Source of the DNA: an uncultured bacterium | GTDB lineage: Bacteria; Patescibacteriota; JABMPQ01; CAVVCK01 | Length of the DNA: 49,880 nucleotides | NCBI GenBank assembly: GCA_963746775.1 | Contig: CAVVCK010000002.1 | Location: 497,656-547,535 of the forward strand | Direction: 5' to 3' | Shown: positions 18,630 to 49,880 of the stretch, in pieces | How positions within the stretch are numbered: the stretch's first letter is position 1 | Layout of the letters: each line of letters opens with the position of its first letter | Notes under the pieces: model-generated | Databases searched by the model: none | What the model was told of the DNA's origin: nothing | Seen by the model: only the letters and a program-made list of their open reading frames with translations | Position numbers and translations under genes: made by a program

Positions 18630-20032
18630 TAAATTTTAAATAATTTTATTTCTAAAATGTCCTTAGAATTTTTATTAGCTTGAAATCTTCTATCGCCTCT
18701 ATACTCTCCAATCCAGGCAATTTCATCTTTATTATTAACAATTAGCGGAACTAGGTCTCTTTTATCTAAATCAATTTTCTTATTTATAAAAAAATCCTTA
18801 ATTTTTTGGCTACCCCCTAGACCTTGAGGATAAAATCTATCTCCTTTTCTTCTCGTTCTTATAAATAATTTTCTCCCTGTTTTACTCAAGTCGATATAAC
18901 ACCTATTTTTACTTATTCGACCACATCTGTCAACCTGCCTTGTTCTAAATTTTATATTAAATTTAGAAATTTCCGTCTCTCCATTTACTTTTAAACCTAT
19001 TTTTTTAAATACAGCTAACTGATTTTTTTTTCTTATTACTATCTTATCATAAATTTTTATAATTTCTATATCTTTAAGATATTTTTTTGATCCGCTCTTT
19101 GAATTCTGCAATAATATTAAAATTTCTTTAATAATTGGCAATGAAACTTCTTTGCAAAACTTTTCATTCAAAATATATTTTAATAATCTACGCTTTAGCG
19201 CTGGGTGCAGATTATTAAATTTTTTTAAATTAATTTTATATTCTTCTTTATCTTTTTTAACTAATTTTTTATATAGATCTTTAGTTAAATCTGAAATCAA
19301 ATCATTATCATCCTTAATTATATTAGAATTTTCAAATAAAATATTTTTTATATTCAAATTATAGTTTTTTTCTAAGCAAGGAATTAATTGGTGCCTTATT
19401 TTATTACGCCTAAATTTTATATCTTTATTCGTTTTATCTTCTCTGTACTCTATCTTATTTTTCTTCAAATAAGCTAATATTTCACTTTTATCAATATTTA
19501 AAAGCGGACGAATAATCTTATTATTTTCAATCTTCATCCCCGATAAACCCGATAATCCTGATCCTCTTAAAAAATGCATTAAAATAGTTTCTGCTTGATC
19601 ATCCTTATTATGAGCCACAACAATTCTATTAGCTTTTTCTAATTTTAAAATTTTATTAAAAAATTCATATCTAATTTCTCTAAAATATTCTTCTAGGTTT
19701 TTTGCGCAGGAACTCAATTCTCGGTACCGAGAATTGAGTTCCGACACGTCTTTTTTATAGCTTTCTGGTTTAATGTTTTTACAGTATAATTTGGTTCTAT
19801 ATTTTTTTGCTAAATTTCTTACGAATTGTTCGTCCAATAAAGAATCTTGTTCTCGAAAATTATAATTAACATGAGCTAAAATAATTTTTATACCCAATTT
19901 TTTTCTCAAAGAATACAAAATATTAAAAAGACAAACTGAGTCAGGCCCGCCAGAAATACCCAAAATAATTTTATTACCTTTTTTAATTAAATTATTTTCT
20001 TTAATTGTTTTTAGAACTTTTTCTTTTAACAT
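18629..20032 (-). CDS. tilS: tRNA(Ile)-lysidine synthase
   Basis: PP-loop GISGGPDS; 467 aa. It lies directly upstream of ftsH with a 1-nt overlap, the conserved tilS-ftsH neighbourhood. Confidence 0.85.
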   Translation of the reverse strand: MLKEKVLKTIKENNLIKKGNKIILGISGGPDSVCLFNILYSLRKKLGIKIILAHVNYNFREQDSLLDEQFVRNLAKKYRTKLYCKNIKPESYKKDVSELNSRYRELSSCAKNLEEYFREIRYEFFNKILKLEKANRIVVAHNKDDQAETILMHFLRGSGLSGLSGMKIENNKIIRPLLNIDKSEILAYLKKNKIEYREDKTNKDIKFRRNKIRHQLIPCLEKNYNLNIKNILFENSNIIKDDNDLISDLTKDLYKKLVKKDKEEYKINLKKFNNLHPALKRRLLKYILNEKFCKEVSLPIIKEILILLQNSKSGSKKYLKDIEIIKIYDKIVIRKKNQLAVFKKIGLKVNGETEISKFNIKFRTRQVDRCGRISKNRCYIDLSKTGRKLFIRTRRKGDRFYPQGLGGSQKIKDFFINKKIDLDKRDLVPLIVNNKDEIAWIGEYRGDRRFQANKNSKDILEIKLFKI

Positions 20033-35558: not shown

Positions 35559-35634
35559 GCGGGTGTCGTATAATGGTTTATTATGTTAGCCTTCCAAGCT
35601 GAAGATGAGGGTTCGATTCCCTTCACCCGCTCCA
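35559..35634 (+). tRNA. tRNA-Gly (anticodon UCC), CCA encoded
   Basis: Acceptor GCGGGUG/CACCCGC, anticodon arm UUAGC-CUUCCAA-GCUGA, T arm GAGGG-UUCGAUU-CCCUU, and a terminal UCCA. Confidence 0.9.
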
Positions 35635-39958: not shown

Positions 39959-40942
39959 CTATATCTCACTGATAATATCAAAACCCTTAAAACTACCAGT
40001 GATAGATAAGCCTATTATTTTACCTTGGCAGATATTTTTATCTTTAATCTTTTTAGCTACTTCATTCATAGTTGCACCGGATCCAACGGCATCATCAATT
40101 AATAAAATGTTACTATAAGTATTATTCTCTTCTACAACAATAGTCTTCTGAGCATTCTCAATCCTGTCTTTAAGCTTACCTAGTGTCTTTTGGGGAATTG
40201 TTATTTCTGTTTTTACTTTAGTTAGGGTAATTCTTTTAGTATTTAATTTTAATCCCTGCTCCAATTCTTTCATGAATTGTATCTCTCTTTTAATCGTAGG
40301 AGGAATAAAACCCACTCCTTCAATTTTATATTTTTTTATAATTTTTTTAACCTTAGGTTGAATTTCTTCAATTAATTCTTTAATTATTTTTTTATTCTGA
40401 GTCTGTTTGGCATATAGCAGAAGTTGGCCTAATTTAGTTTTACCAAATCTTTCTATGCTATAAAAATCAAGGTAATAAAGATAACTTAAATAAACTTTAG
40501 AAAAAGTATCTTTTATTTTTCTCTTTCCATCAATAAGCCCATTCTTTCTAAAAGTATCGTATTTTTTTAAAGTTTTAATATATTCTTGAGCAGTTTTTTG
40601 GATAGGTTGCCCATTTTTTTGGCACCAATAAATAAATCCATTTACACCTTCTTTTCTCTCGCCAGTAGGAGTGATAATTAAATATCTTTCATTAATTATT
40701 TTTTTAATATCATCATTTAAATCTATCTTTTCTTTTTTTAGTGTACTTTTTTCTTTTAATGAATAAAAAACCTTAGGCGGTTTTCCCAATTTAATAATCT
40801 CCCCTTTTTCTAAAAGTTTTCCTAAATGATGTTTAAATAAAGCCTGTCTTGAAATAGCTAAATAGCCTACTAACTCTTTGGCTGTAGATTGCCCCTTTTT
40901 CTCTAAATAATTAATAATTTTTTGGCTAGTATCTGTTTTCAT
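39959..40942 (-). CDS. winged-helix DNA-binding domain fused to a type I phosphoribosyltransferase (ComF-like) domain
   Basis: N-terminus: IINYLEKKGQSTAKELVGYLAISRQALFKHHLGKLLEKGEI (wHTH). C-terminus: ILLIDDAVGSGATMNE (PRPP-binding loop). Confidence 0.7.
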   Translation of the reverse strand: MKTDTSQKIINYLEKKGQSTAKELVGYLAISRQALFKHHLGKLLEKGEIIKLGKPPKVFYSLKEKSTLKKEKIDLNDDIKKIINERYLIITPTGERKEGVNGFIYWCQKNGQPIQKTAQEYIKTLKKYDTFRKNGLIDGKRKIKDTFSKVYLSYLYYLDFYSIERFGKTKLGQLLLYAKQTQNKKIIKELIEEIQPKVKKIIKKYKIEGVGFIPPTIKREIQFMKELEQGLKLNTKRITLTKVKTEITIPQKTLGKLKDRIENAQKTIVVEENNTYSNILLIDDAVGSGATMNEVAKKIKDKNICQGKIIGLSITGSFKGFDIISEI

Positions 40943-41149: not shown

Positions 41150-41626
41150 TTATTGGCAGAGAGCAACTCGGCTACCATCTCCCCAACTGTAAGGGCTGTC
41201 TGAGCAGCCTTTGGTATTTCCCTCCCAATCGCATACCCTAGTGCACCTCAGACCTATAGATTGGCATAAATCATCAAATGTGTTGCCAGTGCCAGGAACA
41301 TTAACCCTGGTGTAATTGGGGGCACATTTGGCTTGTAGTTCGTTTTCTCGATCTGCATTCCTAGTATTTTCGAATCCATACCAGCCTGGACTAGCTTTGC
41401 TGCAAATACTTGAATCGCAACATTCTGACACACTTTCGCAAGTTTGTCTGTTACTCCATTCTCCGCCTCCAGCTCTAGAACACGCTGGCTGAAAACCAGA
41501 AGCACAACAACAGTAATGACGAACTGATTTGTTCCTCTCGTTTCCGTATGCTGTCAATATTATTCCTATCACAATAACTGCGATAACTCCTAGAACAACA
41601 ACAATGAAAGATCTTGCGCGCATCAT
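41150..41626 (-). CDS. membrane-anchored cysteine-rich extracytoplasmic protein
   Basis: I chose the start at MMRARSF because GGAGGA lies 4-5 nt upstream. One TM segment (FIVVVLGVIAVIVIGIILTA) is followed by about 115 residues with about 19 Cys, including CCC and CC. GC is clearly above that of the neighbours. Confidence 0.6.
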   Translation of the reverse strand: MMRARSFIVVVLGVIAVIVIGIILTAYGNERNKSVRHYCCCASGFQPACSRAGGGEWSNRQTCESVSECCDSSICSKASPGWYGFENTRNADRENELQAKCAPNYTRVNVPGTGNTFDDLCQSIGLRCTRVCDWEGNTKGCSDSPYSWGDGSRVALCQ

Positions 41627-41694
41627 CTTTTCCTCCATGAAGGGTTTTGTGGTATAAACAAATTTTATAATAATATTTTTTAAAAGCAATCTAA

Positions 41695-41728
41695 TTTAAA
41701 AAGGACTGTATTAACTACAGCCTTTTTT
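41695..41728 (-). terminator. hairpin terminator after the FG-GAP/phosphoesterase gene
   Basis: aaggactgta / tacagcctt stem with flanking A and T runs. Confidence 0.5.
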
Positions 41729-41755
41729 AAATTTTTATAATTTTATATTTTTATC

Positions 41756-43603
41756 CTAATGACACCAGCCACTACCTTTATCACTAAAATCAAATCCATT
41801 TATAGGAATATATTCCCATTCGAAACTTCTAGAGTAAAGCTTAAAACTTATTATGCCTTGAGAATCATTGTATCTTATAAGACTGTTATCTTTTATATCC
41901 GTAAAATCATATAAATTATCAGTACCGCCAGTGCCTACGACAAATTCTAAAATGCCTTTTGATAAATCTAAATTGCCTTGAGGGTCTTGAGGCCTAAATC
42001 TTTCATAATCATGATCATGGCCATTAACCACTATTTCAGCGTTATGATCATATAGTGCCTGCCATAAATCTTTAACTTGTTCGTTATCATCATGTGGACC
42101 GGAACTAAAAAGAGGATGATGAAAATAGGCTAGGGAGCAACTGCCAGCTTTAGTTTCTAAATCATTTTGAAGCCATTTTTCTTGTTCTGATCCTGCTTCA
42201 CAGCCGCCAATTTCAGAACAATTGCTATTGAGGGCTACTATATGCCAAGAACCAAGATCATAACTATAGTATCCTTTGTCAGGATCACCAGCAGCTTGAC
42301 CAAAATATTTGAAATATCCAGAAGCATTTGGCGTATAGTATTCATGGTTGCCAGCAGTAGGTTTAGTTCTATCCTTATGCCTTCCCCAAGTAGGATCATA
42401 ACAGTCTTGAAATTGTTCATCTGTGCCTTGTAAGTAAGCATCATCTCCAGCAGTAAAAATTGTACCAGGAAGCTTATCTAATAATTTAGCAGTGGCTTCA
42501 TCTCCATCCACCCCGCACTTAGCAATATCACCAGCTCCAGATAAAGTATAATAAGGAATATCTTTTTTTAAATTAAATAAACCAGCGACATCTGTTCCGC
42601 CTCTAAATTTATTATCATAAGCAAAAAAAGTGGTATCTATTTTGGTGCCATCGCCTTCATATAACTCTACTTGCGGACCACCGCCAGGGCCTGCACCAAC
42701 TATAATTTCATCTTGATCATCTTCATCTATATCGGAGGCGCTAACAAAAGCACCAACGGAAAAATTTCCAAATGCTCTAAAACTAGCCTTATTTTCAATT
42801 GTATTACCAATATGGAAAACTTTTATTTCAGCAGCATCTTCTTTCTTGGAAACCACAATATCTTTTCTGAATCCATCGCCATTAAGATCGCCAGCGGAAA
42901 CATCAAGTCCGCCATGGTAGCTTTCTTCAAAAGCAAAAAATTGTTTTAAAAAAGTTCCATCAGCTTCATAAATTTTAACTTGCGGGCCACAGCCTTCACC
43001 TGCTGCCACAATTACTTCATCACCGCCGTCATTATCTATATCGCTCATAGCAACCGAGGCTCCGCAAGTAGCTTCACCAAAAGCATTCCATTCTCCTAAG
43101 ACAGTTTTTTCATTATTATATTTATAAACTTTTACCCAAGCCTGCCCTTCCGCTGATTGAGACATAGCTATTTCATCTTTACCATCTCCTTCCACATCAC
43201 CTGAAGCAACGTTGATGCCAGTCCTAGTATCAGGACGAAAAGGCCATATTTCTATTCCTCTCTGTGTCCCATCTTTTTCAAATACTCTTACCTGAGGTCC
43301 ACCGCCCACACGAGGTGCAGTGATTATTTCATCTAAACCATCAGCATCTATATCGCCAGAAGCGATAAATACACCTTGCCTGGAATCTTCACCATAAGCG
43401 AAAAGTTTATTGGGATCGGTTTCAACATTTCCATTTTCATCAAAAGCTCTAATGTGAGGGCTGCCACCTGGTCCTGCTCCGGTGATTATGGAAAAGGTTA
43501 GATCCTGGCGACTAAGAAGATCGGGATTATAATCTGCAGCATTGGTGAATAGAGGAATTCCAGGAAGAAAAAATAAAATAAACAATAAATATTTTATTTT
43601 CAT
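41756..43603 (-). CDS. secreted FG-GAP repeat protein fused to a calcineurin-like metallophosphoesterase
   Basis: Signal peptide MKIKYLLFILFFLPGIPLFTNA, then about 5 FG-GAP repeats (GGGPQVRVFE...GD.DGDG.DEI). The C-terminus has AGDIAKCG, GDDAY, GNHEY and GHDHDYER. Confidence 0.85.
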   Translation of the reverse strand: MKIKYLLFILFFLPGIPLFTNAADYNPDLLSRQDLTFSIITGAGPGGSPHIRAFDENGNVETDPNKLFAYGEDSRQGVFIASGDIDADGLDEIITAPRVGGGPQVRVFEKDGTQRGIEIWPFRPDTRTGINVASGDVEGDGKDEIAMSQSAEGQAWVKVYKYNNEKTVLGEWNAFGEATCGASVAMSDIDNDGGDEVIVAAGEGCGPQVKIYEADGTFLKQFFAFEESYHGGLDVSAGDLNGDGFRKDIVVSKKEDAAEIKVFHIGNTIENKASFRAFGNFSVGAFVSASDIDEDDQDEIIVGAGPGGGPQVELYEGDGTKIDTTFFAYDNKFRGGTDVAGLFNLKKDIPYYTLSGAGDIAKCGVDGDEATAKLLDKLPGTIFTAGDDAYLQGTDEQFQDCYDPTWGRHKDRTKPTAGNHEYYTPNASGYFKYFGQAAGDPDKGYYSYDLGSWHIVALNSNCSEIGGCEAGSEQEKWLQNDLETKAGSCSLAYFHHPLFSSGPHDDNEQVKDLWQALYDHNAEIVVNGHDHDYERFRPQDPQGNLDLSKGILEFVVGTGGTDNLYDFTDIKDNSLIRYNDSQGIISFKLYSRSFEWEYIPINGFDFSDKGSGWCH

Positions 43604-43667
43604 AGGTGTTTTTTTATTTATATTTGTTTTTATTATATATGAAAAAGAGAATAATTTGAAATGAGAG

Positions 43668-43694
43668 ACTCTTTAGTTGGAAATACTAAAGAGT
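43668..43694 (-). terminator. hairpin overlapping the stop codon of the 166-aa ORF
   Basis: actctttagt / actaaagagt perfect 10-bp stem. Confidence 0.45.
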
Positions 43695-44186
43695 TGAGGG
43701 AAGGGGATTTCTTAGGAGTTCAGCTGTGATCGGGTCGGGAAAATATATGACTAGAGATGGAACATCTATTAGTGGTGCGAGGTCTTTTTCTGATTGTTTT
43801 ATTATTTTTAGGTGTATTTTCCCATTTTCAAGCCAAACATACGTTTTCTCTCCAATATAACGCCTTTTAGCTTTAAACCATATCGGATTGACTTTTACAT
43901 CGGAAGGAGAAGATCTCCATATTTTTTTTAGATACCGTTGAACTCTAGCACAGTTAATATGGATGCTTAGGACTTTACAAAGATTTTTTCCTATTTCTGT
44001 AAATAGCAAAATACGGGCCAAACAAACCCAGCAATCATGGTTAACATGCTCTTCAAATCTAGAAGAACCTTTTCCATTGATGAAATGGACCACATCACTA
44101 GCCCTGAAACCATGTATACAGCGTAGACCAAGAGGATAAGAAAAATTACAAATCAGCCAGTCTGAAGATTCTTTATCATAAAGCAT
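43686..44186 (-). CDS. hypothetical Cys/His-containing protein
   Basis: 166 aa with an AGAGGGA SD 5 nt upstream. H..H.CW.C cluster. No family recognised. Confidence 0.5.
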   Translation of the reverse strand: MLYDKESSDWLICNFSYPLGLRCIHGFRASDVVHFINGKGSSRFEEHVNHDCWVCLARILLFTEIGKNLCKVLSIHINCARVQRYLKKIWRSSPSDVKVNPIWFKAKRRYIGEKTYVWLENGKIHLKIIKQSEKDLAPLIDVPSLVIYFPDPITAELLRNPLPSTL

Positions 44187-44372
44187 TTTATCCCTCTTTC
44201 TTATGTTAAGGTTCGAATGAACCTGCCGAAGTTGACACTAAACCTTATCTTAAAAATATAATTTTGGCAATATTTAAGTTTATACACATTTACTCATTGA
44301 TTAATGAATATAAAGATAATATTTTTGAATATCAAGCTAATTTCGGCTTGATGACAGAGGAAGGATGAAAAA

Positions 44373-45389
44373 ATGGAAATGAAGCTGTTTTCGGGGCGAG
44401 CTAACCAGTCACTGACTGATAAAATATGCACAGAACTAGGTCGGATTACGGGAGAAAAAATACTGAGAAGCCAAGTAAAGGTAGAACGCTTCGCTGATGG
44501 TGAAATTGATGTTCAATATTTAGAGAATCTTCGTCGTTGCCATGTGGTAATTGTTCAGCCGACTTGTCCACCAAGTTCGGAGACGTTAATGGAACTTTGT
44601 CTTTTAATTGATGCAGCTAAGCGTGCCTCTGCGGAAGAAATTACTGCAGTAGTTCCTTATTTTGGTTTTGCGAGGCAAGATCGTAAAGAAAAGCCTCGTA
44701 AACCAGTGTCAGCGAAGGTTGTTTGTGATCATATAAAAAGTGCTGGAGCGAAGAGGATCGTTGCTATTGATCTCCACACACCAACTATTATGGGTTTATT
44801 CGATGGACCATTTGACGATGTTTGGTTTGTTGGCAGTTTACTTTCTCATTTCGATGGCTCTCGTAATTGGGGTGAGGTTACTCTTACTTCGCCCGATGTT
44901 GGTGGGGTGGCCCGTTGTGATACTGCAGCGGCCAAAATAAGTCCGGATATGGCTGTTGGTTTTATCAGAAAGTCTAGGCCGGACGCTAATATAGCTCTAG
45001 TAAAAAATGTTGTTGCTGATGTAGAAGGTCGTGATGTCATTTTTTTGGATGATATGGCTGATACTTTAGGGACTTTAGTTAATGCAACTAAAGCAGTAAA
45101 AGAGCTTGGAGCGCGTAAGGTTTTTGCTGCTGCCACACACGCTCTCTTAAGTTTTAACAAGAAGGAGGGCAAAGAAGCAGTTCGGCTTCTCATGGAATCC
45201 GATATAGAAGAACTAGTAGTTTCTGACACAATTCCTATTCCGCCAGAAAAACTTGTCCCAAAAATCAAAGTTGTGTCAGCAGCACCAGTTCTTGCTCGCA
45301 TAATTGAACGGATCCATCGAGGAGGATCTGTTTCTAGTCTTTCAGACGAGTCCTTTGCTTGGGTAAAAAGTGACTGTCACTGTCGATAA
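44373..45389 (+). CDS. prs: ribose-phosphate pyrophosphokinase
   Basis: RFADGEI, VVPYFGFARQDRK, AIDLH and FLDDMADTLGT (PRPP loop). GAGGAAGGA SD upstream. Confidence 0.9.
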   Translation: MEMKLFSGRANQSLTDKICTELGRITGEKILRSQVKVERFADGEIDVQYLENLRRCHVVIVQPTCPPSSETLMELCLLIDAAKRASAEEITAVVPYFGFARQDRKEKPRKPVSAKVVCDHIKSAGAKRIVAIDLHTPTIMGLFDGPFDDVWFVGSLLSHFDGSRNWGEVTLTSPDVGGVARCDTAAAKISPDMAVGFIRKSRPDANIALVKNVVADVEGRDVIFLDDMADTLGTLVNATKAVKELGARKVFAAATHALLSFNKKEGKEAVRLLMESDIEELVVSDTIPIPPEKLVPKIKVVSAAPVLARIIERIHRGGSVSSLSDESFAWVKSDCHCR

Positions 45390-45587
45390 AATGCACTTTC
45401 CACTATCAGGAGCTCTTTAAGAGCTCAATCCAATTATAAAAACTTTATAAATAAAAATAACCAGTGAATATACTGGTTATTTTAGTCGGAGAAAAGTTGA
45501 CATTTTTAAAAAATATCTTATTATTTATCTAGTTTGTGGGGAGTGAACCTTACTGTGCGGTGCTAGTTAGAGGAGGAAGAGGAAGGC

Positions 45588-45701
45588 ATGAGTTCAGATT
45601 GTGTGGAGAGGGATGCGGATGGATTTGAGTTGACAATTCGTTCGCTAGGGCCATTAGATGGTCTACAGTGGAGGGATGGGCTGAGTTTACCCGGGTTATG
45701 A
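45588..45701 (+). CDS. 37-aa micro-ORF with strong SD
   Basis: AGGAGGAAGAGGAAGG lies immediately upstream of the ATG. My translation is MSSDCVERDADGFELTIRSLGPLDGLQWRDGLSLPGL. Confidence 0.3.
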   Translation: MSSDCVERDADGFELTIRSLGPLDGLQWRDGLSLPGL

Positions 45702-45790
45702 AGGGTAGACTAAATAGCGAAGAAGAAATGGGTATTATTGATCTCATTCGAGAGGTTAGCGGAAGAAAACCCACAGACAAGGAGATTTAG
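45698..45790 (+). CDS. 30-aa micro-ORF coupled by an ATGA overlap
   Basis: MKGRLNSEEEMGIIDLIREVSGRKPTDKEI. Its start overlaps the stop of the preceding micro-ORF, and a plus-strand terminator follows. Confidence 0.3.
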   Translation: MKGRLNSEEEMGIIDLIREVSGRKPTDKEI

Positions 45791-45832
45791 TACATTAAAG
45801 CACATCAAATAACAGCGAGTCCTTCGCTGCTG

Positions 45833-45872
45833 GAGTTCCTGCATTTATGCCTACCTGCGGGAACTCTTTTTT
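45833..45872 (+). terminator. intrinsic terminator
   Basis: gagttcctgc / gcgggaactc 10-bp stem (one G.U pair) followed by T6. Confidence 0.65.
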
Positions 45873-46056
45873 CATTTATGACTATTTTATTTCTTCAAAA
45901 AATATATTTGTAAACTTAGAAATTATATATGGTGGGAATTACTAGAAGAAGTTAGAACTTGTTTGAAAGAGAATAATGGTTTTAATTCGTATGCTTTTTC
46001 TTGAGTATTTATTTATGCAGCAACAAACTAAGTTTATTCTTAAGTAATAATATCAC

Positions 46057-46099
46057 AAAACCAAAGCAGCCTTTGCATAATTAAGGCTGCTTTGGTTTT
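46057..46099. terminator. bidirectional terminator, 16-bp perfect stem
   Basis: aaaaccaaagcagcct / aggctgctttggtttt. Confidence 0.7.
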
Positions 46100-46134
46100 A
46101 CACTATCCAGGAAAAGATAGTGCATTTTGGATCG

Positions 46135-46908
46135 CTATATTCTTAATATACTTGCTGCTACCTCAACACGACCAGCAAGCTCCAATATGTCTGGAGCTTG
46201 TACTTGATCGTGTGCTGTAGAGAAAGCATATATCTGATATACCTGTCGCAATATTAGTGCTACAGGAACCCAGTTAGCAATAAAGTTATAATCCTCCTCT
46301 GTTGCTCCATAACGACGATAATACAATGAGCGGATCTCAGGTAGAAAATAGATCTGTCGAAAATCTCCAGTTGGTATCACGGCTTGTGCGCACTTCAACC
46401 ATTGGATATCCTCGAGAGACCAGTCTTCCCCTATCTGAGCAATGTCAATGGTAGGAACACCACTCCGAGTAACTTGCATAATTTTTTCATATGCAAGTAC
46501 TGCTGATTGAGGAAATCCCAGAATAAAGCCGGTCAGAAGATCTGACTTGCCCTTGGTCCTTTTATACTGCCAAGCACCAGCAGCATTTTCTTGAACCGAA
46601 AGACTATCATCCCAGCCCGCTTTTTCAGCAAACTCCCGTTCCAGCCGTACTCTCTCATGAACCGCGGAGGGCACCATAAGCAGATCCCCCTCGAAAACTG
46701 TGGAGATACCCGCTTTTTCCAGAATCAGCTGAGCTTCTTGTTTCGACTGCTCCGAGACCCCCTCTAAAAGTAGTGCCGGTTTTACACCCAGAATGATTCC
46801 CAGCCATTCTCCAGGTTGTCTTCCTGGATTTTCCAGACATTCCATTATAGCACTAAACGTTTTTCCAATTCTTTCTCTTGCCAAGTGCCTCTTGATTTTC
46901 CCGAACAT
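46135..46908 (-). CDS. hypothetical protein
   Basis: 257 aa, about 45% GC, GAGAGGGGTGAG SD, and an upstream TTGACA-18-TATATT promoter on the minus strand. No family recognised. Confidence 0.55.
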   Translation of the reverse strand: MFGKIKRHLARERIGKTFSAIMECLENPGRQPGEWLGIILGVKPALLLEGVSEQSKQEAQLILEKAGISTVFEGDLLMVPSAVHERVRLEREFAEKAGWDDSLSVQENAAGAWQYKRTKGKSDLLTGFILGFPQSAVLAYEKIMQVTRSGVPTIDIAQIGEDWSLEDIQWLKCAQAVIPTGDFRQIYFLPEIRSLYYRRYGATEEDYNFIANWVPVALILRQVYQIYAFSTAHDQVQAPDILELAGRVEVAASILRI

Positions 46909-47098
46909 ATCTCACCCCTCTCTTGTCTCCATTTAACAAGCCGCTAAATATACATCATTTTTATATAAAATGTCAAGCCAATAAAAAGAAACCTATTAAT
47001 TTAGGCTTCTTTTTATTCCACAGAATACAAGTTAGTTATATTCTCTGGGGATTTAGAGACTCATGTGGTTTTGAAAATAACCAGGGAGGGTAGGAGTT

Positions 47099-47872
47099 CT
47101 AGTCGTCCTCGTCATAGGGATCGACATCAGGGTTTATTTCGAAAAACGTTGTCTCCTCATCCTTATGACAAGCAAGGCAGGTCTCTATATGCGCATCGCA
47201 TATAACCTCTATATCACCTGGAAGACGATAATCCTCAAGAAAGCAGAAGTCCTCACAAGTCATGGACTGGGGGTCACTTCGTAGCTTTTGGAAAAGACGC
47301 TCACAGGCTTCGTCACAATCCAGCTTATCGTCTTCACTTTCCTCTTCTTCAAATCCCGGACCATCCTCGCCACCCAGAAACATTTGAAGATTAAGCTTGC
47401 GCTCCCGAGGTGTCTCCTTGGACAAGGCTTCGTGGAATCTGGCCACGTACTCGACAAACATGATGCCCAGCTGATAGTAGACTCCGGGCGGGAACTCTCC
47501 GATTGCAGCCATTTCCTCGAAATCGTGCACATCCCACTCTACACCAAATTGATCAATAATTATTTCCTCAATGTTTCTCCATGCCCACTTACAACCCTCT
47601 TCGCTCACGTCTTGAACTGAGAGTCCGGTCGACTCTTGGAGATCGTCATCACATACCAATAACAGAGCATGATCGAGAGCAATGAAGTAGCGCTTCCCTG
47701 CTCCCAGGAATAGCTTATCCTCTGGATCATCAACAGGTAAACCCCTCCCAAATAACAAAGGAAGTAGTTCCTGACCAACTGCAAAGAGCTGCTCCTGATG
47801 CTCCTCTTTCCGAGATAGCACCAGTTCTAGTCTACCTCTACATGAGTCCCACAAGGTACGAAAGCTTTTCAA
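47099..47872 (-). CDS. acidic hypothetical protein with C-terminal zf-HC2-like (anti-sigma type) Cys/His motif
   Basis: 257 aa with a TTG start 4 nt after GGAGG. The C-terminus CEDFCFLEDYRLPGDIEVICDAHIETCLAC fits C...L..Y.....H...C..C. Confidence 0.55.
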   Translation of the reverse strand: MKSFRTLWDSCRGRLELVLSRKEEHQEQLFAVGQELLPLLFGRGLPVDDPEDKLFLGAGKRYFIALDHALLLVCDDDLQESTGLSVQDVSEEGCKWAWRNIEEIIIDQFGVEWDVHDFEEMAAIGEFPPGVYYQLGIMFVEYVARFHEALSKETPRERKLNLQMFLGGEDGPGFEEEESEDDKLDCDEACERLFQKLRSDPQSMTCEDFCFLEDYRLPGDIEVICDAHIETCLACHKDEETTFFEINPDVDPYDEDD

Positions 47873-48194
47873 GGTTCCTCCTCGCTCGCAATTTAGTTAA
47901 TTTTTTCTACGAGCCCACCCGAGAATATGAATTTTAATATTCTCGGGTGGATAACGGAGAAACCTAGAACTTGCTCAACTGCATATTTAGACAGATTTAT
48001 ATAAATTTGTCAATAACAATAAACCCGATCTTTTGTCATTTGATACAAGATATCATTAGGATATTATAGTTATAGAGAACAATAAAACTTGATCGTGTCA
48101 CATGCTACCACCATAAATATTGTAACAATTGTATGAAAATGTATTTTTTGTTATGATTAATGTAAATATATAAATAGTAAATAATTCTAAAACA

Positions 48195-49748
48195 ATGAAA
48201 ACAACCTGGCCTTACGTTTCAATCGCAAGACGTCTAAAGTCACTTATCACAATCAGTTGTGTTCTGGCTTTAATTTTTAGTTGTGTCGCCAGTTTCTTTA
48301 CTGTGCAAGAAGTAGCGGCGGCGGATTGGTCGACTGAAAAAGTCGACAGCATTGGAGATGTTGGTCAATATTCTTCGATAGCAATTGATTCTTCAGGAAA
48401 CCCACATATTAGTTACTATGATTACACAAATGATGATTTAAAATACGCTTACAAATCAGACAATACCTGGCATACAGAAACAGTAGTGGATAGTATAGGA
48501 TATTCTAGTTCTTCCACTTCTATTACTCTTGACTCTTCCAATAATCCCCATATTAGTTATTACTACCATACAACGAGTAGCCTTAAATACGCTTATAAAT
48601 CAAGTGGTACCTGGCATGTGGAAACAGTGGATAGCGCAGGAGATGTTGGATCATATGCCTCTCTTGCCCTTGACTCTTCCAACAACCCCCGTATTAGTTA
48701 TTATGATAGTACTAACGATAATCTCAAATATGCCTACAAATCAAGTGGTATTTGGCATACGGAAACAGTTGGTAGTATAGGGTATACTAGTTATTCCACC
48801 TCTCTTGCCCTCGATTCTTCTAATAATCCCCATATTAGTTATTATTATGATATAAATGATGATCTTAGATACACCTATAAATCAGGCGGTACCTGGCATA
48901 CGGAAACAGTAGATAGCGCAGGATATGTTGGATGGCATGCCTCCCTTACTCTCGATCCCTCTAATAGGCCTCATATTAGTTATTATGATTATACAAACAC
49001 TAACCTAAAATACGCTTATAAATCAAGCGGTACCTGGCACACAGAAATGGCAGGTAGTACGGGACCTGTTGGTTTCCAAACTTCTCTTTCTCTTGATTCC
49101 TCTAATAATCCCCATATTGGTTATTATAATGATGCAGGTTTTGATCTTAAATACACTCATAAATCAAGCGGTACCTGGCATGCGGAAACAGTGGATAGCG
49201 CGGGAGATGTTGGCAAATATACTTCTCTTGCCTTAGATTCCTCCGATAATCCCCATATTAGCTATTATGATAATACAAATGACGATCTTAAATACGCTAC
49301 AAAAGAAAATGATTCCTCTGACGATTCCAGTGATGACTCTTCTGACGATTCCTCTGACAATTCCTCCGACGATTCCTCTCAAGACGGCGACACTTCCCCT
49401 GATGGCGGCGTCTACGATGAACGTACAGACTCTGAAGGCAACGGCGTTCTAGTGGACTTGAATCCTAAAATCCTAACTACCTCCGGCCCTGGCGAGCCAG
49501 CTCGGCTGCAAGCTTATTCCAAAGGAAATACTGATGGCTCTAATTCTCTTCTGGATAATGATATTACCGGCCTTTTTCCTGATTCTTACACCGGTGGCGC
49601 CGGAATAGTTCCTATTGATTACAATAATAATACTGTCCTCGATCAATTCCTCATCTTTGCTATTAATAATGGCGGTCCTCAAGCCAGAGTGATGGGATTA
49701 AAAGCAGATGGGTTCTCTATCTTCCTTGGGGCAACAATTTGTCTTTGA
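48195..49748 (+). CDS. surface protein: seven ~47-aa propeller-type repeats, Ser/Asp linker, FG-GAP-like C-terminus (3' end disrupted)
   Basis: N-terminal anchor LITISCVLALIFSCVASFF. Seven copies of WHTETVDS.GDVG.Y.SLALDSSNNPHISYYD.TNDDLKYAYKSSGT, then DSSDDSSDDSSDDSSDNSSDDSS, then GGPQARVMGLKADG. Confidence 0.75.
   Translation: MKTTWPYVSIARRLKSLITISCVLALIFSCVASFFTVQEVAAADWSTEKVDSIGDVGQYSSIAIDSSGNPHISYYDYTNDDLKYAYKSDNTWHTETVVDSIGYSSSSTSITLDSSNNPHISYYYHTTSSLKYAYKSSGTWHVETVDSAGDVGSYASLALDSSNNPRISYYDSTNDNLKYAYKSSGIWHTETVGSIGYTSYSTSLALDSSNNPHISYYYDINDDLRYTYKSGGTWHTETVDSAGYVGWHASLTLDPSNRPHISYYDYTNTNLKYAYKSSGTWHTEMAGSTGPVGFQTSLSLDSSNNPHIGYYNDAGFDLKYTHKSSGTWHAETVDSAGDVGKYTSLALDSSDNPHISYYDNTNDDLKYATKENDSSDDSSDDSSDDSSDNSSDDSSQDGDTSPDGGVYDERTDSEGNGVLVDLNPKILTTSGPGEPARLQAYSKGNTDGSNSLLDNDITGLFPDSYTGGAGIVPIDYNNNTVLDQFLIFAINNGGPQARVMGLKADGFSIFLGATICL
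48327..49310 (+). repeat. 7 x ~141-bp tandem coding repeats
   Basis: 984 nt covering seven protein repeats. The DNA-level similarity is visible by eye, for example aataatccccatattagttattat recurring. Confidence 0.8.
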
Positions 49749-49880
49749 CTCATCTATCCGAGACGGACTATCGCCACCTCCGGTGACTTTGATAATGACG
49801 GCTACAAGGATGACGCTGCTTTGCTGTACCCAGGGCACATTAGATGATAAAAATGAAAAAATGAAGTGTACACACAACAT

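Follow-up and report, generated by a model that had tools for sequence, protein, structure and literature searches.

How does a run of GC-richer genes, led by Shine-Dalgarno (SD) sequences, come to lie in an AT-rich genome whose genes mostly lack them? The question is raised by a block at 43650-47950 of the stretch of DNA analysed here (the window, 49,880 nucleotides; G000:C2:497656-547535), which forms the final 49.9 kb of the 547.5-kb contig C2 in the assembly (G000) of an uncultured bacterium of the Patescibacteria. The block holds a second gene for ribose-phosphate pyrophosphokinase (prs) together with open reading frames (ORFs) of unassigned function, and it lies between two genes of native type. 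Its genes were probably acquired piecemeal by horizontal transfer, largely from other Patescibacteria, and would since have been partly ameliorated. The feature is real but ordinary, namely a small patch, devoid of an integrase, that consists of imported or accessory genes, and islands of this kind produced by horizontal gene transfer have already been published. The assembly comprises three contigs (C1, C2, and C3, with GC of 0.319, 0.308, and 0.322, respectively; genome GC about 31%) that amount to 1.126 Mb; its completeness is given as 99.55% and its contamination as 1.77%. Its size agrees with that of the sampled genomes of the phylum, which range over 0.5-2.1 Mb. Depending on the search, 300 or 400 other genomes of the phylum were compared with it, the nearest being 15 genomes of the same order.

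Base composition and Shine-Dalgarno use

The abrupt switch in base composition described in a preliminary description of the window is borne out, GC being 0.410 at 43650-47950 as against 0.305 at 1-40500, and the hand counts first offered for it (24/60 at 44401-44460, 27/60 at 47101-47160, and 10/60 at 19201-19260) are exact on recounting. The rise is broader than first noted, beginning near 40.5 kb and continuing, with 1-kb values of 0.33-0.46, up to the end of the window, which is also the end of the contig. The flanking native-type genes contribute a part of it (GC 0.384 and a GC content at third codon positions, or GC3, of 0.214 for the FG-GAP gene on one flank; GC 0.407 and GC3 0.315 for the BNR-like gene on the other). 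The tetranucleotide comparison proposed at the outset gives percentiles of 98.0, 98.8, and 98.5, out of 1116 windows of the genome, for the 4-kb windows from 43650, 44000, and 45000, respectively, a distance comparable to that of several other atypical patches of the genome. In differing from its host in base composition, the block resembles a classical genomic island.

At synonymous sites the picture is uneven. The GC3 of the host averages 0.221 (sd 0.066) over a set of 999 ORFs, obtained as the greedy longest ORFs of at least 80 amino acids rather than as a curated annotation. In the block, GC and GC3 are 0.365 and 0.27 for the 166-aa ORF (43686-44186, minus strand), 0.43 and 0.286 for prs (44373-45389, plus strand), 0.45 and 0.372 for a 257-aa ORF (46135-46908, minus strand), and 0.478 and 0.481 for a second 257-aa ORF (47099-47872, minus strand). 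Only the two 257-aa ORFs are clear synonymous-site outliers, at 2.3 and 3.9 sd over the host mean. Such a spread of GC3 suggests different arrival times or sources, together with partial amelioration.

Regarding translation signals, every SD string quoted in the preliminary description was found, including GGAGGA before the ATG (41626) of a Cys-rich gene to the left of the block. A purine-rich SD precedes all four of the larger block ORFs: AGAGGGA for the 166-aa ORF, GAGGAAGGA for prs, AGAGGGGTGAG for the 46135-46908 ORF, and GAGGAGGAA before the TTG start of the 47099-47872 ORF. The genes of the host are mostly devoid of such signals, as had been claimed. When an SD motif was counted as GGAG, GAGG, or AGGA within 20 nt of the start, it preceded 69 of 999 ORFs, compared with 71 of 997 at a control offset (-60 to -41); with any of the first 40 in-frame starts permitted, the proportions were 15.4% and 15.2% (control offset). 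Genome-wide, SD enrichment is limited to GC3-rich ORFs, the motif being found before 17/116 ORFs with GC3 above 0.27 (7/116 at the control offset) and before 52/883 of those with GC3 of 0.27 or less (64/883 at the control offset). The four block ORFs constitute the only run of at least three consecutive SD-led ORFs in the genome.

This distribution can also be read in another way, which is the main rival to acquisition by transfer. The block may consist of long-resident, lineage-specific accessory genes, either ancient or native, in which GC-rich coding and SD sites have been kept by selection, e.g., for initiation on structured, GC-richer messenger RNAs. The occurrence of SD enrichment only before GC3-rich ORFs would be in keeping with such selection, and so would the spacers within the block, whose GC of 0.28-0.34 falls at the 70th-89th percentile of 476 host spacers (mean 0.245) and hence in the host range. 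On the other hand, the GC3 of the two 257-aa ORFs is poorly explained by long residence, which is regarded as possible but unlikely; further evidence on both its sides is given below.

The host appears able to use SD sites. Its 16S ribosomal RNA (C1:495277-496786) terminates in GGATCACCTCCTTTC and carries the anti-SD CACCTCCTT at the 3' end, with CCUCC intact. Imported SD sites can therefore work, since the CCUCC anti-SD has been retained. As reported for the Parcubacteria (Tsurumaki et al. 2022, RNA, PMC9297842), an anti-SD motif is detected in only 48% of genomes, and SD pairing can often be dispensed with. Like the SD-poor initiation outlined in that study, G000 is without overall SD enrichment; it differs from the SD-poor Parcubacteria as outlined there in that the anti-SD is retained and SD motifs are gathered on compositionally atypical genes. 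While it can be hypothesized that two modes of initiation coexist in the host, about 880 AT-rich genes being translated without SD pairing and a GC-richer, probably imported minority being SD-dependent, with the anti-SD retained for that set and the block as its clearest cluster, this proposal is speculative and rather doubtful. That SD sites are limited to genes of atypical composition, in a host retaining its anti-SD, nevertheless deserves follow-up, and the contrast between SD-led and SD-less genes within one genome could be used to ask how the ribosomes of the candidate phyla radiation (CPR) pick start codons.

Other GC-rich genes (GC 0.49-0.55) are dispersed across G000. They include a radical SAM gene (C1:687-1940), a Ser/Thr protein kinase gene (C1:206962-208449), an unassigned 420-aa ORF with an SD (C1:514808-516070), and the genes for two MopE/LamG-type proteins (C2:110523-113467; GC 0.53-0.55). 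The richest GC patch of the genome, at C1:58-67 kb, was considered as a ribosomal RNA operon and rejected as such, as it has no Rfam match and the 16S gene lies elsewhere on C1. Likewise, SD-led ORFs of 167 and 257 aa at C2:377-380 kb are similar in size to ORFs of the block, yet unrelated to them.

A second prs in a separate clade

The strongest indication of the origin of the block comes from prs. The encoded protein matches PF13793 (3.7e-42), PF14572 (6.9e-20), and PF00156 in Pfam, and NF002320 (328 bits; cut-off 297) and TIGR01251 (291; cut-off 113) in NCBIfam; it possesses both the N-terminal Prs domain and the phosphoribosyltransferase (PRTase) domain that define the class I family. It aligns over its full length with the solved Prs structures 3dah and 7xmu, the motifs YFGFARQDRK, DLH, RP-ANIA, and DDMADTLGT being kept. 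In this alignment ARQDRK is conserved, KSRPDANIA stands opposite KRRPKANVA, and DDMADTLGT opposite DDMVDTAGT; we take these three stretches to be the catalytic (flexible) loop and the loops binding phosphoribosyl pyrophosphate (PRPP). As judged from its sequence, the gene thus encodes an intact class-I-type ribose-phosphate pyrophosphokinase. While it is like other class I enzymes (3dah, 7xmu, 1dkr) over the full length and in its conserved motifs, and scores above the NF002320 cut-off, it differs from them in being the second copy of its genome, in short insertions near residues 26-31 and 261-266, and in a C-terminal tail, ESFAWVKSDCHCR, that is common only to a small subclade.

The native prs (303 aa, C2:411877-412758) is just 31-33% identical to the copy in the block. 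Quick maximum-likelihood trees, with support from the Shimodaira-Hasegawa-like approximate likelihood-ratio test (SH-aLRT) only, were built as the preliminary description had advised, and assign the island prs to a clade that includes neither the native prs nor the prs of the same-order genomes. The native copy groups with the same-order genomes G010 and G005 (SH-aLRT 98). The island copy groups with the proteins P0002 and P0173 (76-77% identity; SH-aLRT 99), next to which come P0003 and P0004 (SH-aLRT 96), followed by P0027 and the protein of the same-phylum genome G255 (SH-aLRT 97). Long residence accounts poorly for a second copy so placed.

Close relatives of the island prs are few. A search of 5.8 billion proteins returned P0002 at 76% identity (P0173 belongs to the same cluster), all others being at 49% or less. 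Among 400 other genomes of the phylum, 128 had a prs match, the best being 42% identical to the island prs. In a scan of species genomes, 585 of 600 candidate stretches were confirmed as prs, with a best identity of 44% among the matches listed; for metagenome contigs the corresponding figures were 577 of 599 and 45%, again among the matches listed. Generic prs saturated both scans. The C-terminal F-x-W tail (e.g., ESFAWVK, EAFRWVK, and HSFDWAK in the subclade) is found in six proteins, namely the island prs, P0002, P0173, P0003, P0004, and that of G255, and is absent from the clade members P0027 and P0008 as well as from the six named mainstream Prs sequences examined. The only placed genome with a member of the F-x-W subclade is G255, which belongs to the same phylum, is GC-rich, and uses SD sites. 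The F-x-W type is the only prs found in it and follows rpmE-prfA (L184, G255:C9:223956-227924; locus GC 0.52), with a GC of 0.585, a GC3 of 0.71, and a strong SD, AGGAGGAGGGTGA.

Prs families also exist in phages, and the island prs matches one of them (phrog_619, E 1e-39). The moron-like cargo of phages, in addition, typically includes orphan genes that possess promoters and terminators of their own. Both points would suit a decayed prophage or another mobile-element remnant in which prs is an auxiliary metabolic gene. Such a remnant is nevertheless highly improbable: there is no structural, integrase, or replication gene in the block, the three uncharacterised proteins (the 166-aa and both 257-aa proteins) have no match in 50,697 phage records, and no relative of the island prs is encoded in viral contigs. 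Moreover, the protein scores above the cut-off of a cellular family, NF002320, and its clade includes the cellular housekeeping copy of G255.

An observation that also concerns PRPP is that the gene at 39959-40942 (minus strand), of native composition, encodes a 327-aa protein whose C-terminal half is weakly matched by PRTase-CE/Pribosyltran in Pfam and whose N-terminus, by eye, resembles a winged helix. This may be a PRPP-using protein, encoded a few kb from the extra prs.

Origin of the block and integrity of the assembly

The remaining proteins of the block are rare. The look-up of taxonomic best matches that had been proposed for the uncharacterised ORFs gave 0, 1, and 0 of 300 other phylum genomes for the 166-aa, 46135-46908, and 47099-47872 proteins, respectively. 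For the 166-aa protein, there was no credible match in these genomes (one being marginal), and a word search of the 5.8 billion proteins retrieved one homologue, at 56% identity. The 47099-47872 protein matched only itself, both in 301 phylum genomes and in the same word search. That next to no relatives of two of the four proteins turned up in any of the searches is difficult to reconcile with long residence. The 46135-46908 protein is a member of a family of 50 representatives at E<=1e-3, itself included (7 at E<=1e-10). A source look-up covered nine members, of which three were source-named, one being from Candidatus Doudnabacteria and two being called "hypothetical protein". The family profile matched the same-order genome G001 alone among the 300; there, a 211-aa form (L011:9745-10380) is encoded between rny and a ymdB-like phosphoesterase gene. 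This copy has host-level GC, which is a point in favour of long residence. The content of the block had been summed up as prs plus four to five unassignable ORFs. The gene for prs is intact and the function of the others remains unassigned, but one ORF can now be attached to a family with two CPR links.

Taken together, these data are best accommodated by piecemeal acquisition. According to this model, 43.65-47.95 kb would be a small mosaic in which accessory genes obtained by horizontal transfer are inserted between two surface-protein genes of native type, in a variable surface-gene region of a 1.13-Mb genome of 31% GC. The probable source of the prs gene would be a same-phylum bacterium with a higher GC and with SD use, and the gene would enable more PRPP to be made for nucleotide salvage. 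For the 46135-46908 family, the CPR links (Candidatus Doudnabacteria and G001) likewise hint at a same-phylum source. The block would then illustrate how a streamlined, probably host-dependent bacterium can gain metabolic capacity, here a second PRPP synthetase, through gene import.

Patescibacteria have been described as carrying islands and transferred genes by the hundreds, for the most part passed between members of the phylum (Gios et al. 2025, mSystems, PMC12455944). In line with the general features of those islands, the block is an atypical accessory patch in a streamlined CPR genome, with a likely within-phylum donor and a cargo for nucleotide metabolism. Compared with those features, it is just 4.3 kb in length, it is without mobility or restriction-modification genes, and it is a mosaic of uneven GC3. 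The contrast in SD use between block and host does not figure among the main points of that study.

Several observations weigh against acquisition and have to be set beside the evidence in its favour. No integrase, transposase, or other mobility gene was detected in the ORFs of 41150-49748 with Pfam, PHROG, NCBIfam, and PADLOC, nor any defence or phage gene. There is no transfer RNA (tRNA) border, the only tRNA of the window being at 35559-35634, and no flanking direct repeat beyond chance, the best being 15 nt of AT-rich sequence at 87% identity. On these three points the scans and the repeat search agree with the preliminary description. The GC3 of prs and the 166-aa ORF (0.29 and 0.27) lies within about 1 sd of the host mean, which would also suit long residence, and their GC excess is mostly at codon positions 1 and 2, i.e., a matter of protein composition. 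The nearest placed relative of the prs, in G255, is only 41-42% identical. The lack of a phage-record match for the three uncharacterised proteins and of a viral prs relative, already mentioned, also counts against acquisition. The closest genomes in the comparison set are those of the same order, so that presence or absence of the block is read only at that distance. Lastly, X1 (discussed below), the sole public run in which any part of the stretch is present, may be the sample of origin, and its contigs span no junction. The preliminary suggestion of a foreign island is supported by the second prs in another clade, by the other ORFs that are rare or unfound in 300 phylum genomes, and by the SD run. 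The block, lacking direct repeats as well as a mobility gene and a tRNA border, is not a classical genomic island, and prs and the 166-aa ORF are near the host in GC3.

The alternative first raised alongside a foreign island, an assembly chimera, receives little encouragement from the flanks. The left flank is an FG-GAP and metallophosphatase gene of native type (41756-43603, minus strand), without SD, which has many paralogues on C1 and C2, with over 20 paralogous matches for its FG-GAP part. The right flank is a BNR-like repeat protein gene, also of native type and without SD (48195-49748, plus strand). Its N-terminal part is repeated on C1 and C2 (41% identity), and its C-terminal module of about 100 aa recurs at more than 10 loci of the genome with 53-73% identity. 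As both surface-protein genes that enclose the block have numerous paralogues in this genome, a chimeric join is unlikely; it would require two misjoins no more than 4.3 kb apart.

An artefact near the end of C2, produced either by chimeric joining or by the collapse of a strain variant, could be suspected from the location of the block, 1.9 kb from the contig end, and from what lies to its right. Positions 48202-49826 of the window (C2:545857-547481) are repeated at C3:1-1624 with 99.7% identity (2 substitutions and 3 small indels, one of which shifts the frame in the C2 copy of the BNR-like gene), and the final 54 nt of C2 have no other match in the assembly; the assembly is therefore unresolved just right of the block. 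The repeat represents either an unmerged overlap or two gene copies. Against this stand, besides the flank paralogues, the host-like spacers within the block, the completeness and low contamination of the three-contig genome, and the presence of both parts in the soil metagenome X1 (share 0.06). Four short contigs of this run are 100% identical to the stretch, two to its native part (40000-40040 and 40451-40643) and two to the block (46551-46937 and 47127-47313), the junctions being unspanned. An assembly artefact is thus very unlikely, and the idea of a chimera is set aside in favour of piecemeal acquisition.

Promoters, hairpins, and remaining genes

As predicted from motifs, the genes of the block would be largely separate expression units, most of them seemingly provided with a near-consensus promoter of sigma-70 type, a terminator hairpin, or both. 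A promoter-like site (TTGACA-16-TATTAT, 11/12) at 45497-45524 on the plus strand is located ahead of a two-cistron micro-operon, and another (TTGACA-18-TATATT, 11/12) at 46947-46976 on the minus strand precedes the 46135-46908 gene. The two long perfect hairpins first described are both at the places given for them, but their arms are 17 nt, the second with one mismatch, and not 16 and 14. The first (46057-46099), whose perfect stem of 17 bp is flanked by an A-tract and a T-tract at its two sides, is found between convergent units and is likely a bidirectional terminator. The second (47915-47950) is upstream of the 47099-47872 gene on the gene's own strand. A further hairpin with 16-nt arms and runs of A and T at its sides (46980-47017) comes after the stop of the same gene. 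No RNA family was recognized by Rfam in 43500-48300 at E<=1.

The micro-operon consists of a 37-aa ORF (45588-45701, plus strand), preceded by a 16-nt purine-rich SD, AGGAGGAAGAGGAAGG, and a 30-aa ORF (45698-45790, plus strand), as read from the sequence. The TGA of the former overlaps the ATG of the latter (ATGA at 45698-45701), and the 30-aa ORF is apparently translationally coupled to the 37-aa ORF. Neither has a Pfam family.

With regard to the three uncharacterised proteins, no Pfam match was obtained even at E<=10. The 166-aa protein has no Pfam, PHROG, NCBIfam, or PADLOC family and no usable protein-atlas match; a suspected likeness to HNH endonucleases was unsupported by searches and has been dropped. 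The same applies to the C-terminal H-x3-C-x2-C of the 47099-47872 protein, considered as similar to a zf-HC2 anti-sigma finger. This latter protein, an acidic orphan, has no usable protein-atlas match, and its single-sequence AlphaFold2 model (predicted local distance difference test score, pLDDT, 39.7) is too poor for use. The two 257-aa proteins are not paralogues (BLASTP E 0.25).

The 46135-46908 family is characterized by conserved motifs including GVKPA, EPELA..GWD, and GF.LGFP.SAI. It corresponds to no Pfam or NCBIfam family, with 3 isolated weak Pfam matches among the 37 members scanned. The AlphaFold2 model of the protein is confident (pLDDT 93.1; predicted template modelling score, pTM, 0.88). 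Its comparison with the PDB by Foldseek and VIA-align wide gave no convincing fold, the best Z being 5.7 to 2guk, a protein of unknown function, and the family profile retrieved nothing from the PDB sequences. A family with a confident predicted fold, yet no solved or annotated relative, is worth follow-up.

Left of the block, the Cys-rich gene (41150-41626, minus strand) encodes a 158-aa protein with an N-terminal hydrophobic helix and no Pfam family. With a GC of 0.449 and GGAGGA about 6 nt before its ATG, it does share GC-richness and SD with the block, as the preliminary description had it, and can be viewed as an outlying member, separated from the rest by a native-type gene. This intervening gene, which is the left flank of the block, encodes a secreted-looking fusion protein of 615 aa that combines FG-GAP repeats with a calcineurin-like metallophosphoesterase domain.

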